Of a DNA stretch of 37,548 nt, positions 5,353 through 23,258 are shown one piece after another. How positions within the stretch are numbered: position 1 is the stretch's first letter; every line of letters starts with the position of its first letter. The position numbers and the translations under genes are program-made. Source of the DNA: a virus (lineage: Duplodnaviria; Heunggongvirae; Uroviricota; Caudoviricetes); the IMG/VR virus record IMGVR_UViG_2636416131_000002, one strand, 5' to 3'. Under the pieces are notes generated by a model that was not told where the DNA came from, searched no databases, and saw only the letters and a list, made by a program, of their open reading frames with translations.

Positions 5353-5416
5353 GTGTTGGCGCAAGATAAAGCCAATACATTGAAATGTAAGGCTTTAAAA
5401 TTTTGTGAAGGGATGA

Positions 5417-5824
5417 TTATTGATGCTTGTTGCGTTTGCGAGCCTCTAATAGCTCGGTGAACAGGCGATTAAAATTCTCAACGCGGGCGCGGAGTTCGCT
5501 GAGTTGTGCTTGTTGCTCTGATTTAGGAAGTGCGCGATACAAACGCAGCATCTCTAACTCATCTTCCGATAAGTCTAAGGCACTATCGAGTGAAACAGGG
5601 GGAGCTGGTGTTTTGTCCTCGTCGCCAAACAGTATCCAAGTTGGTGAACATTGCAATACCTCGGCGAGGCGATGCAAATTTTGCCCGCGCGGGGCTGTAT
5701 GGTCACTTTCCCATAATGAAATTGATGAGCCAGATACGCCAGCAGCTTTGCTTAAACCGTTTTGACTTAAGCCTACCTGCTTACGTCTTTCTCTAATGCG
5801 TTGACCTAAAGTTTTCTCGTTCAT
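5417..5824 (-). CDS. dicA: DicA / RacR-family HTH (XRE-type) prophage repressor, 135 aa from the internal ATG
   Basis: HTH region QVGLSQNGLSKAAGVSGSSISLWE and the motif LQCSPTWILFGDEDK, which I recall from DicA. Divergent from a Cro-like gene. An in-frame upstream ATG at 5875 (152 aa) sits inside the operator palindrome and could serve a leaderless transcript. Confidence 0.7.
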   Translation of the reverse strand: MNEKTLGQRIRERRKQVGLSQNGLSKAAGVSGSSISLWESDHTAPRGQNLHRLAEVLQCSPTWILFGDEDKTPAPPVSLDSALDLSEDELEMLRLYRALPKSEQQAQLSELRARVENFNRLFTELLEARKRNKHQ

Positions 5825-5845
5825 ATTTAGATATCTTAATAACCC

Positions 5846-5875
5846 TTGACTTGAGATTCCTTGAGTGATTAGCAT
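5846..5875 (+). promoter_or_regulatory. Early-right (PR-like) promoter: -35 TTGACT, 18-bp spacer, -10 TAGCAT
   Basis: Hexamers read directly; the -10 abuts the perfect palindrome at 5875-5888; Cro-like ATG at 5902. Confidence 0.4.
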
Positions 5876-5888
5876 TGAGAAAACTCAA
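5875..5888. promoter_or_regulatory. Perfect 14-bp palindromic operator TTGAGAAAACTCAA
   Basis: Read directly. Lies between the divergent repressor and Cro-like genes; two further TTGAG half-sites at 5851 and 5861. Confidence 0.6.
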
Positions 5889-5901
5889 TATTGGAGGTGC
5901 G

Positions 5902-6129
5902 ATGTTTAAATCAGACGTAATTAATTTTTACGGTACGAAAGCCAAAGTAGCGAAAGCTGCTGGCGTTGACCCATCTGCTGTTTCTCAATGGCAAGAGCTG
6001 GTTCCTGAAGGTCGCGCGATGCGTCTACAGGAGGCATCTGGCGGCGAGCTTCTGTATGATCCCAAGGTTTATGACGAATATCGTAAGACGAAGCGGGCGG
6101 GGCGGTTGAACAATGAAAATCACTCCTGA
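5902..6129 (+). CDS. Cro-like small HTH regulator (DicC / YdaS type), 75 aa
   Basis: MFKSDVINFYGTKAKVAKAAGVDPSAVSQWQ… HTH, divergent from the repressor, GGAGG ribosome-binding site. The ORF track starts it at an upstream in-frame codon (5875). Confidence 0.7.
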   Translation: MFKSDVINFYGTKAKVAKAAGVDPSAVSQWQELVPEGRAMRLQEASGGELLYDPKVYDEYRKTKRAGRLNNENHS

Positions 6130-6634
6130 ACAGGCTCGTGAGGCTCTGGATGCCTGGATATGTCGACCAGGAATGACACAGGAGCAGGCGACGATATTAA
6201 TCACTGAAGCATTCTGGGCTTTGAAAGAGCGCCCGAACATCGATGTTCAGCGTGTCACAGATGAAGGTGGCGCGGTTGATCAGCGAGCACTTGGCGTTAA
6301 TCGAGTGAAGATATTCGAACGCTGGAAGGCTATCGACACCAGGGATAAGCGTGAAAAGTTCACGGCGCTAGTGCCTGCAATTATGGAGGCTATTCGGATT
6401 AATGATTTCAGGTTGTATCGTGAAATTAGTGACGGAAAAAGCATCACGTACATGATCGCCGGGTTAAACAAAGAATATGGCGATGTGGTGGAGTCCGGAC
6501 TGCTTTTTGCTGATCCTGCCGTAGTGGATCGTGAAACTGACGAACTTATAGAAAAAGCAATTGCTTTCAAACTTGCGTATCGACAGCAATACCAACAAAA
6601 AGCTGGATGGAATTATGAGCCTTCTTTTTGCTGA
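6113..6634 (+). CDS. YdaT-like protein (CII-position regulator), 173 aa
   Basis: Follows the Cro-like gene with overlapping stop/start, as ydaS-ydaT do in Rac-type immunity regions. Family call from position and recalled similarity. Confidence 0.55.
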   Translation: MKITPEQAREALDAWICRPGMTQEQATILITEAFWALKERPNIDVQRVTDEGGAVDQRALGVNRVKIFERWKAIDTRDKREKFTALVPAIMEAIRINDFRLYREISDGKSITYMIAGLNKEYGDVVESGLLFADPAVVDRETDELIEKAIAFKLAYRQQYQQKAGWNYEPSFC

Positions 6635-7580
6635 ACGCCCACTGGTTATAAACACACAGCTTGCGATGAAGATTGGCTTAAATGAAGCCATTGTGTTGCA
6701 GCAGTTGCATTACTGGTTGAGAGATACCAATTCCGGCATGGAATGTGATGGTGTTCGCTGGATTTACAACACAACGGAACAATGGCTGGAACAGTTCCCA
6801 TTCTGGTCAGAGTCAACGTTAAAGCGCGCGTTTGCAAGTCTGAAAACGCTGGGGCTTTTGCGTTGTGAAAAGCTCAATAAATCAAAGCGCGATATGACCA
6901 ATTTCTACACGATCAACTACGGGAGCGAGCTTTTAGATGGTGGCAAATTGAGCGAATCCATCGGTTTAAAATGCGCCGCTCCATCAGGTCAAAATGACAC
7001 GATGGAAGAGGTCAAAATGAAACGCTCCATTGGTTCAAAACGACCCAATGTCATCGGGTCAAAATGGCCTGATGATCTTACAGAGAATACAACAGAGATT
7101 ACTACAGAGAATAAAAACACTTTTCGTCCGGAAGCTTCGCAACCGGACCCGCAGACCGCTGAACAGGATTTTTTAACCCGGAACCCCGACGCGGTTGTGT
7201 TTAGTGCGAAAAAACGCCAGTGGGGTAGCAGGGAGGATTTGGCGTGTGCGCAGTGGATTTGGGGGCGGATCGTGAACCTTTACGAACAGGCTGCCAGCGA
7301 CGATGGAGAGATCATGCGACCAAAAGAGCCTAACTGGACAGCCTGGGCCAATGACGTGCGCACAATGCGGATGCTGGATGGCAGAAGCCACAGACAAATT
7401 TGCGAAATGTTTGGTCGGGTACAGCGAGATCAATTCTGGGTAAAAAACATCATGAGCCCGTCAAAACTCCGCGAAAAATGGGACGAACTGGTCATCCGCC
7501 TGGGACGTTCACCTGTACAGCGTTGTGTGAATCATATTTCTGAACCGGATACAGAAATTCCGCCTGGTTTCAGGGGATAA
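6615..7580 (+). CDS. Phage replication initiation protein (O-like / replisome-organizer type) containing the iteron array
   Basis: N-terminal winged-helix-like region (LNEAIVLQQLHYWLRD…LKRAFASLKTLGLL) and internal DNA iterons at 6956-7065, the lambda O / ori arrangement. Start chosen at the ATG at 6615, overlapping the upstream gene. Confidence 0.65.
   Translation: MSLLFAERPLVINTQLAMKIGLNEAIVLQQLHYWLRDTNSGMECDGVRWIYNTTEQWLEQFPFWSESTLKRAFASLKTLGLLRCEKLNKSKRDMTNFYTINYGSELLDGGKLSESIGLKCAAPSGQNDTMEEVKMKRSIGSKRPNVIGSKWPDDLTENTTEITTENKNTFRPEASQPDPQTAEQDFLTRNPDAVVFSAKKRQWGSREDLACAQWIWGRIVNLYEQAASDDGEIMRPKEPNWTAWANDVRTMRMLDGRSHRQICEMFGRVQRDQFWVKNIMSPSKLREKWDELVIRLGRSPVQRCVNHISEPDTEIPPGFRG
6956..7065. 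repeat. Five iterons, consensus TCCATCnGGTCAAAATG, spaced 22-24 bp (candidate origin)
   Basis: Copies start at about 6956, 6980, 7003, 7025 and 7049, read directly; located inside the replication gene. Confidence 0.7.
7080..7113. repeat. Three ACAGAGAWTA repeats at 12-bp period in an AT-rich stretch next to the iterons
   Basis: ACAGAGAATA, ACAGAGATTA, ACAGAGAATA read directly; iterons followed by an AT-rich segment is the lambda ori pattern. Confidence 0.4.
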
Positions 7581-7620
7581 GTGTTGATTTTAGGGTATAA
7601 AGTAATGTTCAGGAGGACTT

Positions 7621-8040
7621 GTGGCAAAAGTTTTTACACAAGAAGAGCGGGAAAAAATTAAAGGGCAGGTGGTGGAACTCGTACGCCAGAGTGGGCGCGA
7701 GACGTTACGACAACTGGAAGCTAAAACTGGGGCAACAAGATATCTGATGAGCGTTCTGGCCAGAGAGCTGGTTGCCAGTGGCGATGTATACAGCTCTGGT
7801 TACGGGTTATTCCCGTCTGAACAGGCGCGTAAGGACTGGCAAAACGCCCGCAAAAAACTCTCGAGGGCAAAGGTGAAGAAACCTGCTGTGGTTGATCCGG
7901 ACCTTATCTGGTCATTACCTGACGGAGAAATACGTCGCTACGACAGTCGTCTAAACATAATCTGTCGCGAGTGCCGGAAGGCAAGGAGAAGCAGGCTATT
8001 GTTAACACCAAGCTGTAATGTCCCCTTTGAACCATTCTAA
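7621..8040 (+). CDS. Hypothetical protein, 139 aa, GTG start; 3' end may be altered by the adjacent insertion sequence
   Basis: Strong AGGAGG ribosome-binding site before GTG at 7621. Sits where a helicase loader would be expected, but no Walker motif is visible. ORF ends 34 nt before the transposase ATG. Confidence 0.5.
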   Translation: MAKVFTQEEREKIKGQVVELVRQSGRETLRQLEAKTGATRYLMSVLARELVASGDVYSSGYGLFPSEQARKDWQNARKKLSRAKVKKPAVVDPDLIWSLPDGEIRRYDSRLNIICRECRKARRSRLLLTPSCNVPFEPF

Positions 8041-9640
8041 AATGTCCCCAGACAATTCTCTGGGGGATTTTTCATGATCAAAGAGACTGTTACGATGAGT
8101 CATAAGGAACTCCACCGACTTCAGATTATTCAGGAGTCAATTAATCGACATATTACTCAGGAACAAGCTGCGGCACGCATTGGCATTTCTATTCGGCAGG
8201 TTAAACGTCTGGTGCAACGGTATAGAAATGAAGGGCCTTCTGGTCTGGTTTCCCACCGACGTGGAAAGCGTCCTAATAATTCCTTTTCTACTGAATTCAG
8301 AGCAACAGTAATTTCACTCCTCAAAGGCCGTTACGCTGATTTTGGACCTACGTTTGCGTGCGAAAAATTGCGCGAGATACACGGTTTATCTTTATCCGTT
8401 GAAACTCTCAGAAAGTGGATGATAGAAGAGGGGTTATGGCGTGAACGCCGTCGTAAAATTGCCCGTATATATCAACGCCGCATGCGACGACCATCTTACG
8501 GTGAACTGATCCAGATTGATGGCTCACCTCATGACTGGTTTGAAAATCGAGGCCCCAGATGTACACTGATCGTTTTCATTGATGATGCCACCAGTGCGTT
8601 GATGGCGTTGCGTTTTGTGCCTGCTGAAACAACCCGGGCTTACATGGAAACCCTCCGGGGTTACCTTAATGATCATGGCGTACCGCTCGCTCTCTACTCT
8701 GATAGACACAGTATATTCAGGGTAAATAACCCAGAGCGGGAAGGTGAGCTGACCCAGTTCACTCGTGCGATAAAGACACTGGGCATCGAGCCAATCCATG
8801 CCAACAGCCCGCAGGCAAAAGGGCGGGTAGAGCGCGCCAATCAGACACTACAGGACAGGCTGGTCAAAGAAATGCGGCTTCAGAATATCAGTGATATTGA
8901 AACAGCAAATGCATGGTTGCCGACCTTTATTGAAGCCTATAACAACCGGTTCGCTACGTCGCCTCGTACTACTGATAATGCTCATCTTGATGTGCACCAT
9001 TCTGAAGAGGAACTGGGTTATATCTTCAGCCTACAGGCGAAGCGCGTTCTGTCTAAAAATCTCACTTTCCAGTACAAAAGCAGTGCGTTTCAGGTACGCA
9101 GTGAGGGCCGGGGATATCGACTTAGGCATTCAGTTGTTACTGTATGTGAGAACTTTGACGGTGAAATTAACGTTCTGTATGACGGGAAAGCGCTGGGCTG
9201 GGAAAAGTATGTTGATGGCCCGGAGCCTATACCACTGGATGATGAAAAGAGTGTCCATGAACGAGTGGATAATGCCCGTATTGATTTACGCTCAAAATAC
9301 TATGTTAAATCTAAAGCTGACCATCCCTGCTTACGCGCCGAACGCAAAGTCATCAGTAAGTTAAGCCCCCGAAGTTACCTAAAAAGAAGCCTGATCCCGA
9401 TAAAATAGATTGAAACCAAGATCGATTCGGTTGAGTGCATATCCATTCATAGGGTAGATTCTTAAGTCGCGTTTCTGGTGTTCATTTTCGGGTGGTTTGT
9501 TACTTGTTTTACCGGGGATATGCCAGAAACGCGCTGAGTCAGTCTGGGCGGTGCGCGTAATGAGGCGTTATGGTAAATAGCCTATGCTAATGTCCGCTAA
9601 GAGCAAGAAGCGGAAGTTGGCAGTTTTGTGGACTGTCCCC
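8041..9640 (+). mobile_element. Insertion sequence carrying the 444-aa transposase; ends not resolved
   Basis: Transposase gene interrupts the replication / nin region. I could not identify terminal inverted repeats; TGTCCCCA occurs in direct orientation at 8043-8050 and 9634-9641 and might mark a target duplication. Boundaries are approximate. Confidence 0.3.
8074..9408 (+). CDS. DDE transposase (rve / integrase-core type), 444 aa, N-terminal HTH
   Basis: N-terminal HTH (ITQEQAAARIGISIRQVKRLVQRY), central integrase-core-like region with conserved D/E residues, size and layout typical of single-ORF IS481 / ISNCY-like elements. Family not resolved without search. Confidence 0.8.
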   Translation: MIKETVTMSHKELHRLQIIQESINRHITQEQAAARIGISIRQVKRLVQRYRNEGPSGLVSHRRGKRPNNSFSTEFRATVISLLKGRYADFGPTFACEKLREIHGLSLSVETLRKWMIEEGLWRERRRKIARIYQRRMRRPSYGELIQIDGSPHDWFENRGPRCTLIVFIDDATSALMALRFVPAETTRAYMETLRGYLNDHGVPLALYSDRHSIFRVNNPEREGELTQFTRAIKTLGIEPIHANSPQAKGRVERANQTLQDRLVKEMRLQNISDIETANAWLPTFIEAYNNRFATSPRTTDNAHLDVHHSEEELGYIFSLQAKRVLSKNLTFQYKSSAFQVRSEGRGYRLRHSVVTVCENFDGEINVLYDGKALGWEKYVDGPEPIPLDDEKSVHERVDNARIDLRSKYYVKSKADHPCLRAERKVISKLSPRSYLKRSLIPIK

Positions 9641-21158: not shown

Positions 21159-23258
21159 ATGGGTTTTTCATCAGCCCGAAATTTGGGAAGGGACATATCG
21201 GCAGGATTTTCCCCACCACGTCGCATGCCGATTTCGGAGGCTGTTAAAAAATTCATGCGTGTTCCCAAGGGGGCTGGTAACTCGGTGCCATGGGATCCTG
21301 AACTGACACCCTACATCATTGAGCCCATGAACTGCCTGGCATCGCGTGAATACGATGCGGTGATTTTTGTTGGTCCTGCGCGAACAGGGAAGACCATTGG
21401 TCTGATCGATGGATGGATTGTCTATACCATCGTTTGCGATCCTTCGGACATGCTCGTTGTGCAGATGACCGAAGATAAGGCCCGCGAGCATTCTAAAAAG
21501 CGCCTCGACAGAACGTTCAGAAGCAGTGCGGCGGTAAAGAAAAGAATGAGTCCACGTCGTAACGACAATAATGTCCATGATAAGACGTTCAGGGATGGCT
21601 CGTTCCTTAAAATTGGTTGGCCCTCGGTCAACATTATGTCGTCGTCGGATTACCGGTTTGTCGCCTTAACCGATTACGACCGTTTTCCGGAGAATATCGA
21701 CAGCGAGGGTGATGGTTTCTCCCTGGCCTCAAAACGTACCACCACATTTATGTCCGCCGGGATGACTCTGGTGGAGAGCTCGCCGGGACGTGACATCTGC
21801 GACAGCAAATGGCGACGTAAGTCGCCTCATGAAGCGCCACCGACGACTGGTATTCTTTCCCTTTACAATCGTGGTGACCGCCGCCGCTGGTACTGGTCAT
21901 GTCCGCACTGCGGTGAATATTTTCAGCCAGCCATGGATGCCATGACCGGCTACCGTAATGAACCGGATCCCTTTAAAGCCAGTGAGGCGGCGTATCTACT
22001 TTGCCCGCACTGCAGCGGCATTATCACTGCGGAGAAAAAGCGTGAGCTCAATAGTGCAGGAGTCTGGTTGCGTGAAGGTCAGGTCATTGATCGTAACGGC
22101 AACGTTTCCGGTGAACCGCGCCGCTCCCGTATCGCCAGTTTCTGGATGGAAGGGCCAGCTGCTGCGTATCAGACCTGGGCGCAACTGGTTTACAAATTAC
22201 TGACTGCAGAACAGGAGTATGAAGCGACAGGAAGCGAAGAAACACTCAGGGCGGTTATCAACACCGACTGGGGATTGCCTTATCTTCCTCGTGCCAGCAT
22301 GGAGCAACGAAAAAGTGAACTGCTTGAGCAGCGGGCAGAGCCAGTTCCTTCCCGCAGTGTGCCGGATGGCATTAATTTCCTTGTGGCGACAGTGGATGTG
22401 CAGGCGGGACGTCATCGCCGTTTTGTGGTTCAGGTAACGGGCTATGGCAGTCGTGGCGAACGCTGGATTATTGATCGTTACAACATCACGCAGTCATTGC
22501 GCAGTGACTGCGACGGGGAGAGCCAGCGAATTGATCCGGCCAGCTATCCGGAAGACTGGGATGTCCTGCTGACGGATGTTTTTCATAAAAGCTGGCCGCT
22601 GGCCTCCGATCCTTCTCAACAAATGCGACTGATGGCAATGGCGGTGGACTCCGGCGGTGAAGACGGGGTCACTGATAATGCCTATAAATTCTGGCGTCGT
22701 TGCCGTCGTGATGGCCTTGGTAAACGTATTTACCTGTTTAAGGGTGACAGCATCCGGCGCGCAAAACTGATCAGCCGTACATTCCCTGATAACACCGGAC
22801 GAACGGGCCGCCGGGCGCAGGCCGCAGGTGATGTGCCGCTCTGGCTTCTTCAGACGGATGCCCTGAAAGACCGGGTGAATAACGCGTTATGGCGTGACTC
22901 GCCAGGTCCAGGCTATGTGCATTTCCCTGACTGGCTGGGGAGCTGGTTTTACGACGAACTGACGTATGAAGAGCGGAGCAGTGACGGGAAATGGAGTAAG
23001 CCGGGTCGCGGTGCCAACGAAGCTTTTGACCTGATGGTGTATGCCGAGGCTCTGGTCATTCTGCATGGATACGAAAAGATCCGCTGGCCGGATGCACCGG
23101 AGTGGGCGAGCCGGGAAACCTGGCTGGAGTGTGTCCAGGACAGTACTGAACCGTCATCCTCACCGGAACCGGTATCCACGCCTGTTAAAAAACAAAAACG
23201 GAAGAAAACAGTAACTGACGATGTTAACCCCTGGCTGACTTCCGGAGGATGGTTATGA
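21159..23258 (+). CDS. Terminase large subunit (lambda gpA family), 699 aa
   Basis: Walker A VGPARTGKT, size and N-terminal ATPase / C-terminal nuclease layout of gpA-type terminases; AGGAGG ribosome-binding site. Confidence 0.9.
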   Translation: MGFSSARNLGRDISAGFSPPRRMPISEAVKKFMRVPKGAGNSVPWDPELTPYIIEPMNCLASREYDAVIFVGPARTGKTIGLIDGWIVYTIVCDPSDMLVVQMTEDKAREHSKKRLDRTFRSSAAVKKRMSPRRNDNNVHDKTFRDGSFLKIGWPSVNIMSSSDYRFVALTDYDRFPENIDSEGDGFSLASKRTTTFMSAGMTLVESSPGRDICDSKWRRKSPHEAPPTTGILSLYNRGDRRRWYWSCPHCGEYFQPAMDAMTGYRNEPDPFKASEAAYLLCPHCSGIITAEKKRELNSAGVWLREGQVIDRNGNVSGEPRRSRIASFWMEGPAAAYQTWAQLVYKLLTAEQEYEATGSEETLRAVINTDWGLPYLPRASMEQRKSELLEQRAEPVPSRSVPDGINFLVATVDVQAGRHRRFVVQVTGYGSRGERWIIDRYNITQSLRSDCDGESQRIDPASYPEDWDVLLTDVFHKSWPLASDPSQQMRLMAMAVDSGGEDGVTDNAYKFWRRCRRDGLGKRIYLFKGDSIRRAKLISRTFPDNTGRTGRRAQAAGDVPLWLLQTDALKDRVNNALWRDSPGPGYVHFPDWLGSWFYDELTYEERSSDGKWSKPGRGANEAFDLMVYAEALVILHGYEKIRWPDAPEWASRETWLECVQDSTEPSSSPEPVSTPVKKQKRKKTVTDDVNPWLTSGGWL

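Follow-up and report, generated by a model that had tools for sequence, protein, structure and literature searches.

A probable lambda-style replication origin inside the initiator gene of a Qin-like lambdoid prophage

Where does the vegetative replication of a Qin-like lambdoid prophage begin? The window analysed here is a 37,548-nucleotide stretch of viral DNA (IMG/VR record IMGVR_UViG_2636416131_000002, Caudoviricetes). In the middle of a gene for a replication initiator resembling the O protein of phage lambda, it contains a phased array of repeats (iterons) followed by three tandem 12-mers. A preliminary description of the window, made from its letters alone, had proposed these repeats as a candidate origin. 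The segment 6941-7115 is very probably the vegetative replication origin of the prophage, built in lambda style, in which dimers of the N-terminal domain (N-domain) of the initiator would bind the iterons, and the 12-mers would unwind. We infer the binding by the N-domain, the unwinding of the 12-mers and the origin activity from sequence patterns and their conservation.

The iteron array is formed by six phased 13-nt cores between 6941 and 7069, which are spaced 23-24 nt apart and share the consensus GGTCA-AAA-TGACC. The array is followed by a short junction and the 12-mers:

6941-6953, no strand assigned: iteron core 0, degenerate, TGGCAAATTGAGC, a 23-nt period upstream of copy 1, with four mismatches to GGTCAAAATGACC
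6964-6976, no strand assigned: iteron core 1, weak, GTTTAAAATGCGC, found by repeat search and 17-mer matching
6987-6999, no strand assigned: iteron core 2, GGTCAAAATGACA, forming with its flanks the 27-bp dyad TCCATCaGGTCAAAATGACacGATGGA
7010-7022, no strand assigned: iteron core 3, GGTCAAAATGAAA
7033-7045, no strand assigned: iteron core 4, GTTCAAAACGACC
7057-7069, no strand assigned: iteron core 5, GGTCAAAATGGCC, adjoining the 12-mers
7073-7079, plus strand: junction TGATCTT, containing the sole GATC of the origin; in 64 distinct species-level blocks, TgaTCTT is the consensus ahead of the first 12-mer
7080-7115, plus strand (the A-rich strand): three tandem 12-mers, ACAGAGAATACA, ACAGAGATTACT and ACAGAGAATAAA, the presumed unwinding region, found with Tandem Repeats Finder (TRF)

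A repeat search finds five iteron copies in register, with start-to-start distances of 23, 23, 23 and 24 nt. The preliminary description had counted five copies at a spacing of 22-24 bp. The register is borne out at a measured spacing of 23-24 nt, and a degenerate copy upstream raises the number of phased sites to six. The 17-mer TCCATCnGGTCAAAATG, on which the earlier count was based, lies at 6957, 6980, 7026 and 7050 with zero to three mismatches, and the middle copy at 7003-7019, TGGAAGAGGTCAAAATG, contains the core GGTCAAAATG only, without TCCATC. The whole window holds six matches to the 17-mer against 0.45 expected, and none of 100 shuffled sequences reached six or more. The six sites comprise four strong and two weak ones, as copies 0 and 1 each have four mismatches to the 13-nt consensus; copy 0 is nevertheless well kept in relatives (GAGGTCAAAGTGACC / GGTCAAAGTGACC). 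There is no second iteron array or similar AT-rich repeat in the 37.5-kb window, only isolated weak matches at 23022, 26837 and 12205. DnaA boxes are not enriched in the window (four against 4.2 expected), and the array holds none.

The 12-mer unit is ACAGAGAnTAnn, present three times in tandem after TGATCTT. The three ACAGAGAWTA repeats previously noted in an AT-rich stretch are exact, start at 7080, 7092 and 7104, and have a period of 12 according to TRF. Four matches to this motif occur in the whole window against 0.18 expected, and at least four in none of 100 shuffles. The segment 7080-7119 has a GC content of 0.30, the minimum of the gene, and an AT skew of +0.64. No other 36-bp duplex of the gene is as unstable as the 12-mers (-39.8 kcal/mol; the mean is -49.4), and this AT-rich tract directly adjoins the last iteron. 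It was described as AT-rich repeats, which is correct as far as it goes, but the tract is in addition a DNA element conserved in sequence.

One genome per species was scanned with an N-domain profile, yielding 80 loci (L090-L169) from Proteobacteria, Firmicutes, Campylobacterota and other groups, with N-domains 45-100% identical. The reading frame separates the repeats from the peptide that they encode. Iteron copies 1-5 of the window are translated in three frames, as SIGLKC, APSGQND, EEVKMK, SIGSKR and VIGSKW, and the cores of the 80 loci fall into frames 0, 1 and 2 in 80, 110 and 53 cases. For third codon positions, mean pairwise identity among ten collinear enterobacterial sequences rises from 0.56 in the N-domain to 0.80 in the array and 0.97 in TGATCTT plus the 12-mers; codon positions 1, 2 and 3 of the array are equally conserved (0.83, 0.87 and 0.80). 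The 12-mers are in frame and encode TENT-TEIT-TENK. TExT motifs were defined by their peptide, as a definition by the CAGAGA pattern would be circular for codon usage. In the 80 loci, their Glu is encoded by GAG in 131 of 132 cases (background 44%), and their first Thr by ACA, likewise in 131 of 132 (background 27%). The sole free nucleotide of the 12-mer is at a second codon position and changes the amino acid. The spread over frames and the freezing of synonymous sites indicate that both types of repeats are constrained as nucleic acid.

A repeated peptide kept by selection on the protein was named in the preliminary description as the explanation that would speak against an origin. Iteron copies 1, 4 and 5 do share a frame and encode SIG(L/S)K-like peptides, and the 12-mers are in frame. 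However, copies 2 and 3 use the other two frames, the family as a whole uses every frame, and the corresponding protein segment, disordered by prediction, shows poor conservation. The synonymous sites of the 12-mers are frozen, yet their only free nucleotide alters the amino acid. With third positions at 0.80 and 0.97 against 0.56, this explanation has been checked and excluded; we assign it a negligible probability.

The nucleic acid under constraint could also be the messenger RNA, if hairpins of the palindromes paused ribosomes or affected how stable the initiator message is or how it is translated. When folded as RNA, 6930-7120 has a z-score of -2.99 relative to shuffled sequences, with hairpins on copies 2, 4 and 5. 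Nevertheless, the stems are 4-11 bp long, a trivial outcome of palindromes in DNA, and the 12-mers are predicted to be unpaired. Where single copies deviate from the consensus of their locus, the pairing is in the great majority lost (63+27, 38+25 and 74+20 cases) and seldom restored by compensation (9, 10 and 4). Furthermore, a half-site base co-varies with a residue of the protein, as described below. We consider a function in RNA highly improbable.

The position of the repeats corresponds to that of the lambda origin. The array and AT-rich block end at 7115, and homology to the C-terminal domain (C-domain) of lambda O begins at approximately 7122, 7 nt further on. In lambda, the homology starts at 39157, directly after the iterons of ori and its AT-rich tract. 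The positional correspondence with ori-lambda is thus exact. Both origins lie mid-gene, directly before the part encoding the C-domain, within a pR-type operon after cro and a cII-like gene. Both have dyad iterons with a central A-tract, 20-24 bp apart (TCCCTC-AAAAC-GAGGGA in lambda, GGTCA-AAA-TGACC here), and an A-rich tract of low stability on the promoter-distal side. The C-domains are homologous at 36.8% identity. The comparison supports the earlier proposal of a lambda-type origin inside O with a different iteron sequence. Lambda has four 18-bp iterons (39034-39118) and an AT-rich tract, whereas six phased sites are present here, and three 12-mers of conserved sequence, in tandem, make up the AT-rich tract. 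The N-domain is not that of lambda O, no P gene follows, and the C-terminal tail copies that of DnaT. The sequence TCAGAGAAT, a single unit of the 12-mer motif, occurs once in lambda at the matching place, directly after the AT-rich tract (39163-39171; L009 1507-1515), where it overlaps an EcoRI site and adjoins hybrid crossover points marked in the annotation. The 12-mer element may have left a remnant here, or the match may be due to chance.

The initiator can be divided into an N-domain, a linker, a C-domain, and a short tail:

6615-7580, plus strand: initiator gene, 321 amino acids, from the list of open reading frames (ORFs); PHROG 391 'replication initiation O-like', E 5e-93
6615-6944, plus strand: coding part of the N-terminal winged-helix domain, residues 1-110, presumed to bind iterons
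7146-7505, plus strand: coding part of the helical C-domain, residues 178-297, homologous to the lambda O C-domain, from tblastn and the secondary structure of an AlphaFold2 (AF2) model
7518-7577, plus strand: C-terminal tail RCVNHISEPDTEIPPGFRG, nearly the same as the final 20 residues of Escherichia coli DnaT

The start annotated in relatives is the ATG at 6615. The ORF extends upstream to an in-frame TTG at 6561, which is probably not the initiator start. All iterons and 12-mers are inside this O-like coding sequence (6561/6615-7580), as had been noted. The protein matches PHROG 391 and 277, both 'replication initiation O-like', and its residues 170-294 align with lambda 39157-39495 at 36.8% identity (tblastn, E 4e-18). 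The whole initiator matches no Pfam family at E ≤0.01, and Phage_rep_O is not among its matches. Pfam matches of the N-domain at E ≤10 are at chance level and do not include RepA_N; sequence searches of Pfam, NCBIfam and the PDB with the N-domain gave nothing significant. Its fold was therefore assigned from the AF2 model, built on 44 sequences. Residues 1-110 are predicted confidently, with a predicted local distance difference test score (pLDDT) of 74-94 per 10-residue block. A Foldseek search with this model returned winged-helix DNA-binding domains only, with weak E-values; the nearest solved fold is that of a staphylococcal plasmid replication initiator, and the predicted domain has the winged-helix fold of RepA_N proteins. 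Residues 111-177, which correspond to nucleotides 6945-7145 with the array and 12-mers, have pLDDT below 50. The origin DNA is thus predicted to encode a disordered linker between the N- and C-domains, and, according to the model, the origin is written where coding constraints are weakest.

The family of this initiator is large. It comprises 4,268 proteins at E ≤1e-5 with the whole protein and 1,534 with the N-domain profile, and the phages and prophages that carry the N-domain come from Proteobacteria, Firmicutes, Campylobacterota and other groups. Among the matches listed, none of 120 has a Pfam domain for the initiator protein. Most members are labelled 'hypothetical protein'; the name given by the Prokaryotic Genome Annotation Pipeline (PGAP) in E. 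coli STEC409 is 'phage O protein family'. The name 'primosomal protein I', that is DnaT, assigned by RAST (Rapid Annotation using Subsystem Technology), stems from the DnaT-like tail and was rejected, as the protein scores 16.2 bits with NCBIfam NF002770 against a cut-off of 201 and only the last 20 residues match.

Which part of the initiator recognizes the iterons? In the 80 loci, the core GGTCAAAATG (up to two mismatches) has a density of 10.1 per kb over the 300 nt that follow the N-domain and of 0.52 per kb elsewhere, with a spacing of 21-24 nt or multiples thereof. At least three copies are present in 49 loci, including those of Staphylococcus, Anoxybacillus, Thiothrix and Campylobacterales. 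The consensus unit of the family is ATCSAWnnGGTCAAAATGACCnn, with a palindromic 13-nt core. Other clades have the half-sites GGGCA-AWT-TGCCC, GTGCA...TGCAC, GGACA...TGTCC, GTTCA...TGAAC, CACCA...TGGTG and CGACA...TGTCG, in which both halves change together. Base 3 of the half-site co-varies with base 11, as T:A in 45 loci and G:C in 12. Copies that deviate from the consensus of their locus mostly break the symmetry and seldom compensate, which points to half-sites of a dimeric protein rather than hairpins.

T:A and G:C loci are told apart best by the alignment column of residue 67, in the first turn of helix 66-78, the presumed recognition helix (codon 6813-6815 in the window). This residue is Ser in 42 of the 45 T:A loci and Asp in 11 of the 12 G:C loci; no locus combines T:A iterons with Asp, and Arg or Lys accompany other half-sites. 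The pattern requires approximately four independent changes on a neighbour-joining tree (in Pantoea plus Superficieibacter, Campylobacterales, and others), and in Pseudomonas phage USP_18 Asp is likewise paired with GGGCA-type iterons. A scan of viral contigs with the same profile retrieved near-identical E. coli prophages only (97-100%) and was left out of the co-variation analysis. Residue 67 looks like a determinant of iteron specificity.

Exchange of domains points to the N-domain as well. An N-domain of this family is kept together with an array of like kind in the same place, while the C-domain varies, in phages mEp460_4F5, Klebsiella vB_VIPKPNMC05, Providencia PSTCR8lys, Pseudomonas USP_18 and Staphylococcus StauST398-3; the Klebsiella and Providencia phages share N-domain and iterons and have a different C-domain. 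Conversely, phage SfIV combines the C-domain of mEp460_4F5 with a different N-domain and with repeats CCGTCAAAATCTGAC at 15-nt spacing. The iterons are therefore likely to be bound by the N-domain, as far as co-occurrence in sequence can indicate it.

The 12-mer unit ACAGAGAnTACW, in two to five copies and with TgaTCTT ahead, is present downstream of the array in 73 of the 80 loci. Plain blastn finds the block, at 83-92% identity over ~40 nt, in initiator genes of Acinetobacter, Staphylococcus, Bacillus, Klebsiella, Erwinia, Pseudomonas, Vibrio and Shiga toxin (Stx) phages. In IMG/VR it stands 3' of many iteron types and 5' of at least eight unrelated C-side clusters, and the N-sides beside it all belong to one superfamily by single-linkage clustering. 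The idea that the 12-mers accompany unrelated initiators was dropped, as every N-side falls into that superfamily. By this comparison, the 12-mer block is a fixed part of the N-domain/origin module, in which iterons co-evolve with the protein and C-domains are exchanged.

Initiators of the superfamily place varied iterons before the 12-mers: GGGGAAACCC...TTTCG, ACGTTAAAACGGAAC, GGGTGTTACCC, AGAGATCAATCTAATT, GACCCTCCTCACTT, TTAACAATGGA and GTGATCAACTTGCGCAC. They were observed in the O gene of Stx2_14040 (L004 2380-2500) and in the IMG/VR loci L172, L175, L183, L193, L208 and L222.

A block placed exactly where domains shuffle, between one N-domain superfamily and at least eight unrelated C-side clusters, might be kept alike by homologous exchange, the 12-mers and possibly the array being a recombination joint between the N- and C-domain modules. 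Stx phages have identical 40-nt blocks in otherwise unrelated O genes, and the lambda record marks hybrid crossovers at 39157 and 39165, directly after ori. However, the unit with its frozen synonymous sites is also present in Staphylococcus, Bacillus, Anoxybacillus, Acinetobacter, Pseudomonas and a Thermomicrobiales metagenome-assembled genome. It is implausible that homologous exchange is ongoing between these and phages of E. coli, and the flanks have reached saturation with substitutions. As the explanation of the repeats, a recombination joint is very unlikely; alongside the origin, the role is probably real, because domain shuffling happens exactly there.

We tentatively consider a further possibility, which we hold to be distinctly less likely than the origin itself: that the tandem 12-mer ACAGAGAnTACW with TGATCTT is a sequence-specific origin element. 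Its nucleotide sequence would be maintained from Enterobacterales to Staphylococcus, Bacillus, Acinetobacter and Thermomicrobiales, and it would go with a single large superfamily of winged-helix initiators without a Pfam family, irrespective of the iterons that these recognize and of the C-domain that they carry. The reader of the element, in single-stranded or distorted form, might be a surface conserved in the initiator or a host replication factor of universal occurrence, and in the enterobacterial initiator-only versions the helicase might be recruited via the copied DnaT tail.

The array could also be bound by the initiator for regulation only, serving autoregulation, a transcriptional roadblock on the initiator gene, or copy control or exclusion by titration, with replication starting elsewhere in the phage. 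Iterons of plasmids often have both an initiating and a controlling function, the array is situated in the transcription unit of its own initiator, and the comparative evidence fits binding for control as well as for initiation. Cloned lambda origins are reported to interfere with superinfecting phage (PMC4488673, PMC3349717). However, the 37.5-kb window offers no other iteron array or AT-rich repeat. The array is always coupled to low-stability 12-mers, for which a pure operator would have no need, and it sits at the place homologous to the experimentally proven ori-lambda. A purely regulatory array is unlikely, although less so than the recombination joint.

The genetic setting is that of a temperate phage. 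By gene order and sequence identity, the window is an E. coli prophage of lambdoid, Qin-like type; positions 653-25000 are 100% identical to STEC409 and NCTC9699. The order is integrase, excisionase, exonuclease, ydfD, dicB, DicA-like repressor, Cro/DicC-like, CII-like/YdaT-family, initiator and DUF977, followed by an IS1202-like element, ydfW, relBE, hokD, a Q-like antiterminator, lysis genes, terminase and portal. The genes around the initiator, the first three assigned from Pfam, PHROG and the PGAP annotation of the identical prophage, are:

5417-5875, minus strand: cI/DicA-like repressor, divergent
5902-6129, plus strand: Cro/DicC-like gene
6113-6634, plus strand: CII-like/YdaT-family gene, PHROG 163
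7621-8040: DUF977 gene, the next gene after the initiator

Judged by this arrangement, the Cro/DicC-like, CII-like and initiator genes, with the divergent repressor, form a pR-type operon that reads through the origin. The CII-like (PHROG 163) or 'toxin YdaT family' gene overlaps the initiator start by 20 nt, and some 448-residue database proteins with Pfam YdaT_toxin look like fusions or mis-calls of the CII-like and initiator genes. Directly after DUF977, 8074-9408 holds a transposase ORF of 444 residues (helix-turn-helix plus rve_3). This is the IS1202-like ISEsa1 in the identical prophage of STEC409, called incomplete by PGAP, and mEp460_ev081 has different DNA there.

Phage mEp460_ev081 has an initiator gene with 99.8% nucleotide identity to that of the window, and 6900-7200 is the same in both, base for base. 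Phage mEp460 is a documented viable temperate phage (PMC9836094). The early region of mEp460_ev081 contains no further replication gene, and no P-, DnaC- or DnaB-like gene follows the initiator in the window, mEp460_ev081 or STEC409. The module would therefore be 'initiator-only'. Of 5,426 complete E. coli genomes, at least 621 contain the initiator/origin module at a coverage of 80% or higher. Qin prophages of the K-12 type match the dicC-ydfX part only (602-993 of the query 5400-8100), so the defective Qin of K-12 has lost the initiator gene and the origin. Many 'plasmid' records of ~40-46 kb from E. coli, Klebsiella, Enterobacter, Bacillus cereus, Staphylococcus and Geobacillus carry the initiator (hits H164, H168, H169, H174 and H186-H192). 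They are probably circular phage genomes or phage-plasmids.

A true plasmid carries a member of the family as well. In the 15-kb ParA/CopG plasmid NZ_CP008942.1 (L291) of the amoeba endosymbiont Ca. Paracaedibacter acanthamoebae, the sole Rep-like gene is an initiator homologue. Within this gene, at an equivalent place (L291 6080-6180), two CGACAAAATGTCG palindromes 22 nt apart are accompanied by an AT-rich tract. Between parA and the homologue lies a separate ACATTTGT array with an 8-nt period (L291 5087-5198). The plasmid supports the role of the family as initiators, as judged by gene content, and not the location of the origin.

Comparison with known systems relates the origin of the window to several types. 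In Stx phages 933W and P27, six iterons are present, and strong binding is seen at the four that adjoin the AT-rich tract (Kozlowska et al. 2020, PMC7466680); the AT-rich tract of lambda and Stx phages is needed for unwinding and is bound by O in single-stranded form (PMC7466680). The six sites of the window, with two weak distal copies, resemble this arrangement, whereas 933W and P27 use iterons of the lambda type with O and P proteins. A subset of Stx phages, such as Stx2_14040, contains TGATCTT and the 12-mer block at 97.5% identity; its O gene has yet another iteron type, GGGAAACCC...TTTCG.

The Rep protein of plasmid pSK41 (RepA_N, 319 residues) binds, by its winged-helix N-domain, Rep boxes central in its own gene, and its origin-encoded centre is a dispensable linker (PMC5703833). 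The initiator of the window shares with it (PDB 4pta) the division into three parts, the size (319 and 321 residues), an N-domain of ~110-120 residues and a separate C-domain. Unlike RepA_N plasmids, it lacks a Pfam RepA_N match and has a lambda-O-like C-domain, a phage or prophage context, other repeats and the additional 12-mer block. Embedding of the origin in the initiator gene is also shared with SPP1 G38P/oriL and with 80alpha ORF20 (G38P-like), whose deletion is not complemented in trans (PMC5499656). Staphylococcal and Bacillus phages have true homologues of the N-domain, with GG(T/A)CAAAATG iterons and ACAGAGA units. These are a family different from the G38P-like ORF20 and are annotated 'DnaD-like' or 'replication initiation protein'. 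In the searchable literature we found no description of the motifs GGTCAAAATG, GGACAAAATG, ACAGAGAATAC or ACAGAGA as iterons; an earlier in-silico description is possible.

How would such an origin fire? We hypothesize that the initiator is made from the rightward early operon, together with cro and the CII-like gene, so that transcription passes through the origin. Winged-helix dimers of the N-terminal domain would bind four strong and two weak iterons, in a 23-bp phase, at their palindromic 13-bp cores. The bound array would form a complex like the lambda 'O-some' on intrinsically A-tracted DNA, and its stress would be relieved by opening of the adjacent, least stable segment, the 12-mers at 7080-7115. 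We speculate that the lambda-O-like C-domain and the DnaT-like tail of the 'initiator-only' module then bring in the host helicase. The tail RCVNHISEPDTEIPPGFRG is ~70% identical to the extreme C-terminus of E. coli DnaT, aligned end to end, and a phmmer search with a 46-residue query matches it to PDB chains 2ru8, 6aep and 9zbt (E 4e-4). By this resemblance, the phage may mimic the DnaT tail to connect to the host primosome or to DnaB-DnaC. A role of that tail was not found in a 2026 preprimosome structure paper.

Several points weigh against a lambda-style origin at 6941-7115. No helicase loader is encoded, and the route by which the helicase arrives is a guess. Two of the six iteron sites match the consensus poorly, with four mismatches each. 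The 12-mers are always in frame and encode (T-E-x-T)n, and it is codon statistics only that separate a role as DNA from a role as protein. An unwinding element should need no fixed sequence across phyla, and the 12-mers probably have a more specific role. The co-variation of S67 and D67 rests on approximately four independent events, with relatedness handled by parsimony on a neighbour-joining tree. In the Paracaedibacter plasmid, the array at L291 5087-5198 could be the real origin, or a centromere. Finally, the searchable literature yielded no experiment on binding, unwinding or origin activity in this initiator family. With these points weighed, the lambda-style origin is still the reading that we hold with considerable confidence.

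The origin is of a known kind, and the N-domain family of its initiator is, by database comparison, unannotated and very widespread. The analysis locates the probable origin of Qin-like and mEp460-like lambdoid prophages. It provides a rule for finding candidate origins in thousands of phages across phyla: the N-domain, then 23-bp-phased NNNCA-AAA-TGNNN palindromes, then ACAGAGAnTAC repeats. It also provides a testable specificity code, Ser67 with GGTCA and Asp67 with GGGCA, and the varied iteron types are ready material for a study of recognition. Designs of the lambda type and of the RepA_N type, with the origin inside the linker of the initiator, appear joined in one protein. Members of its family are mostly labelled 'hypothetical protein' or, wrongly, 'primosomal protein I'. 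The ultraconserved 12-mers pose the question of their reader. If they are indeed a sequence-specific element, they would define a widespread, undescribed class of phage and plasmid origin.

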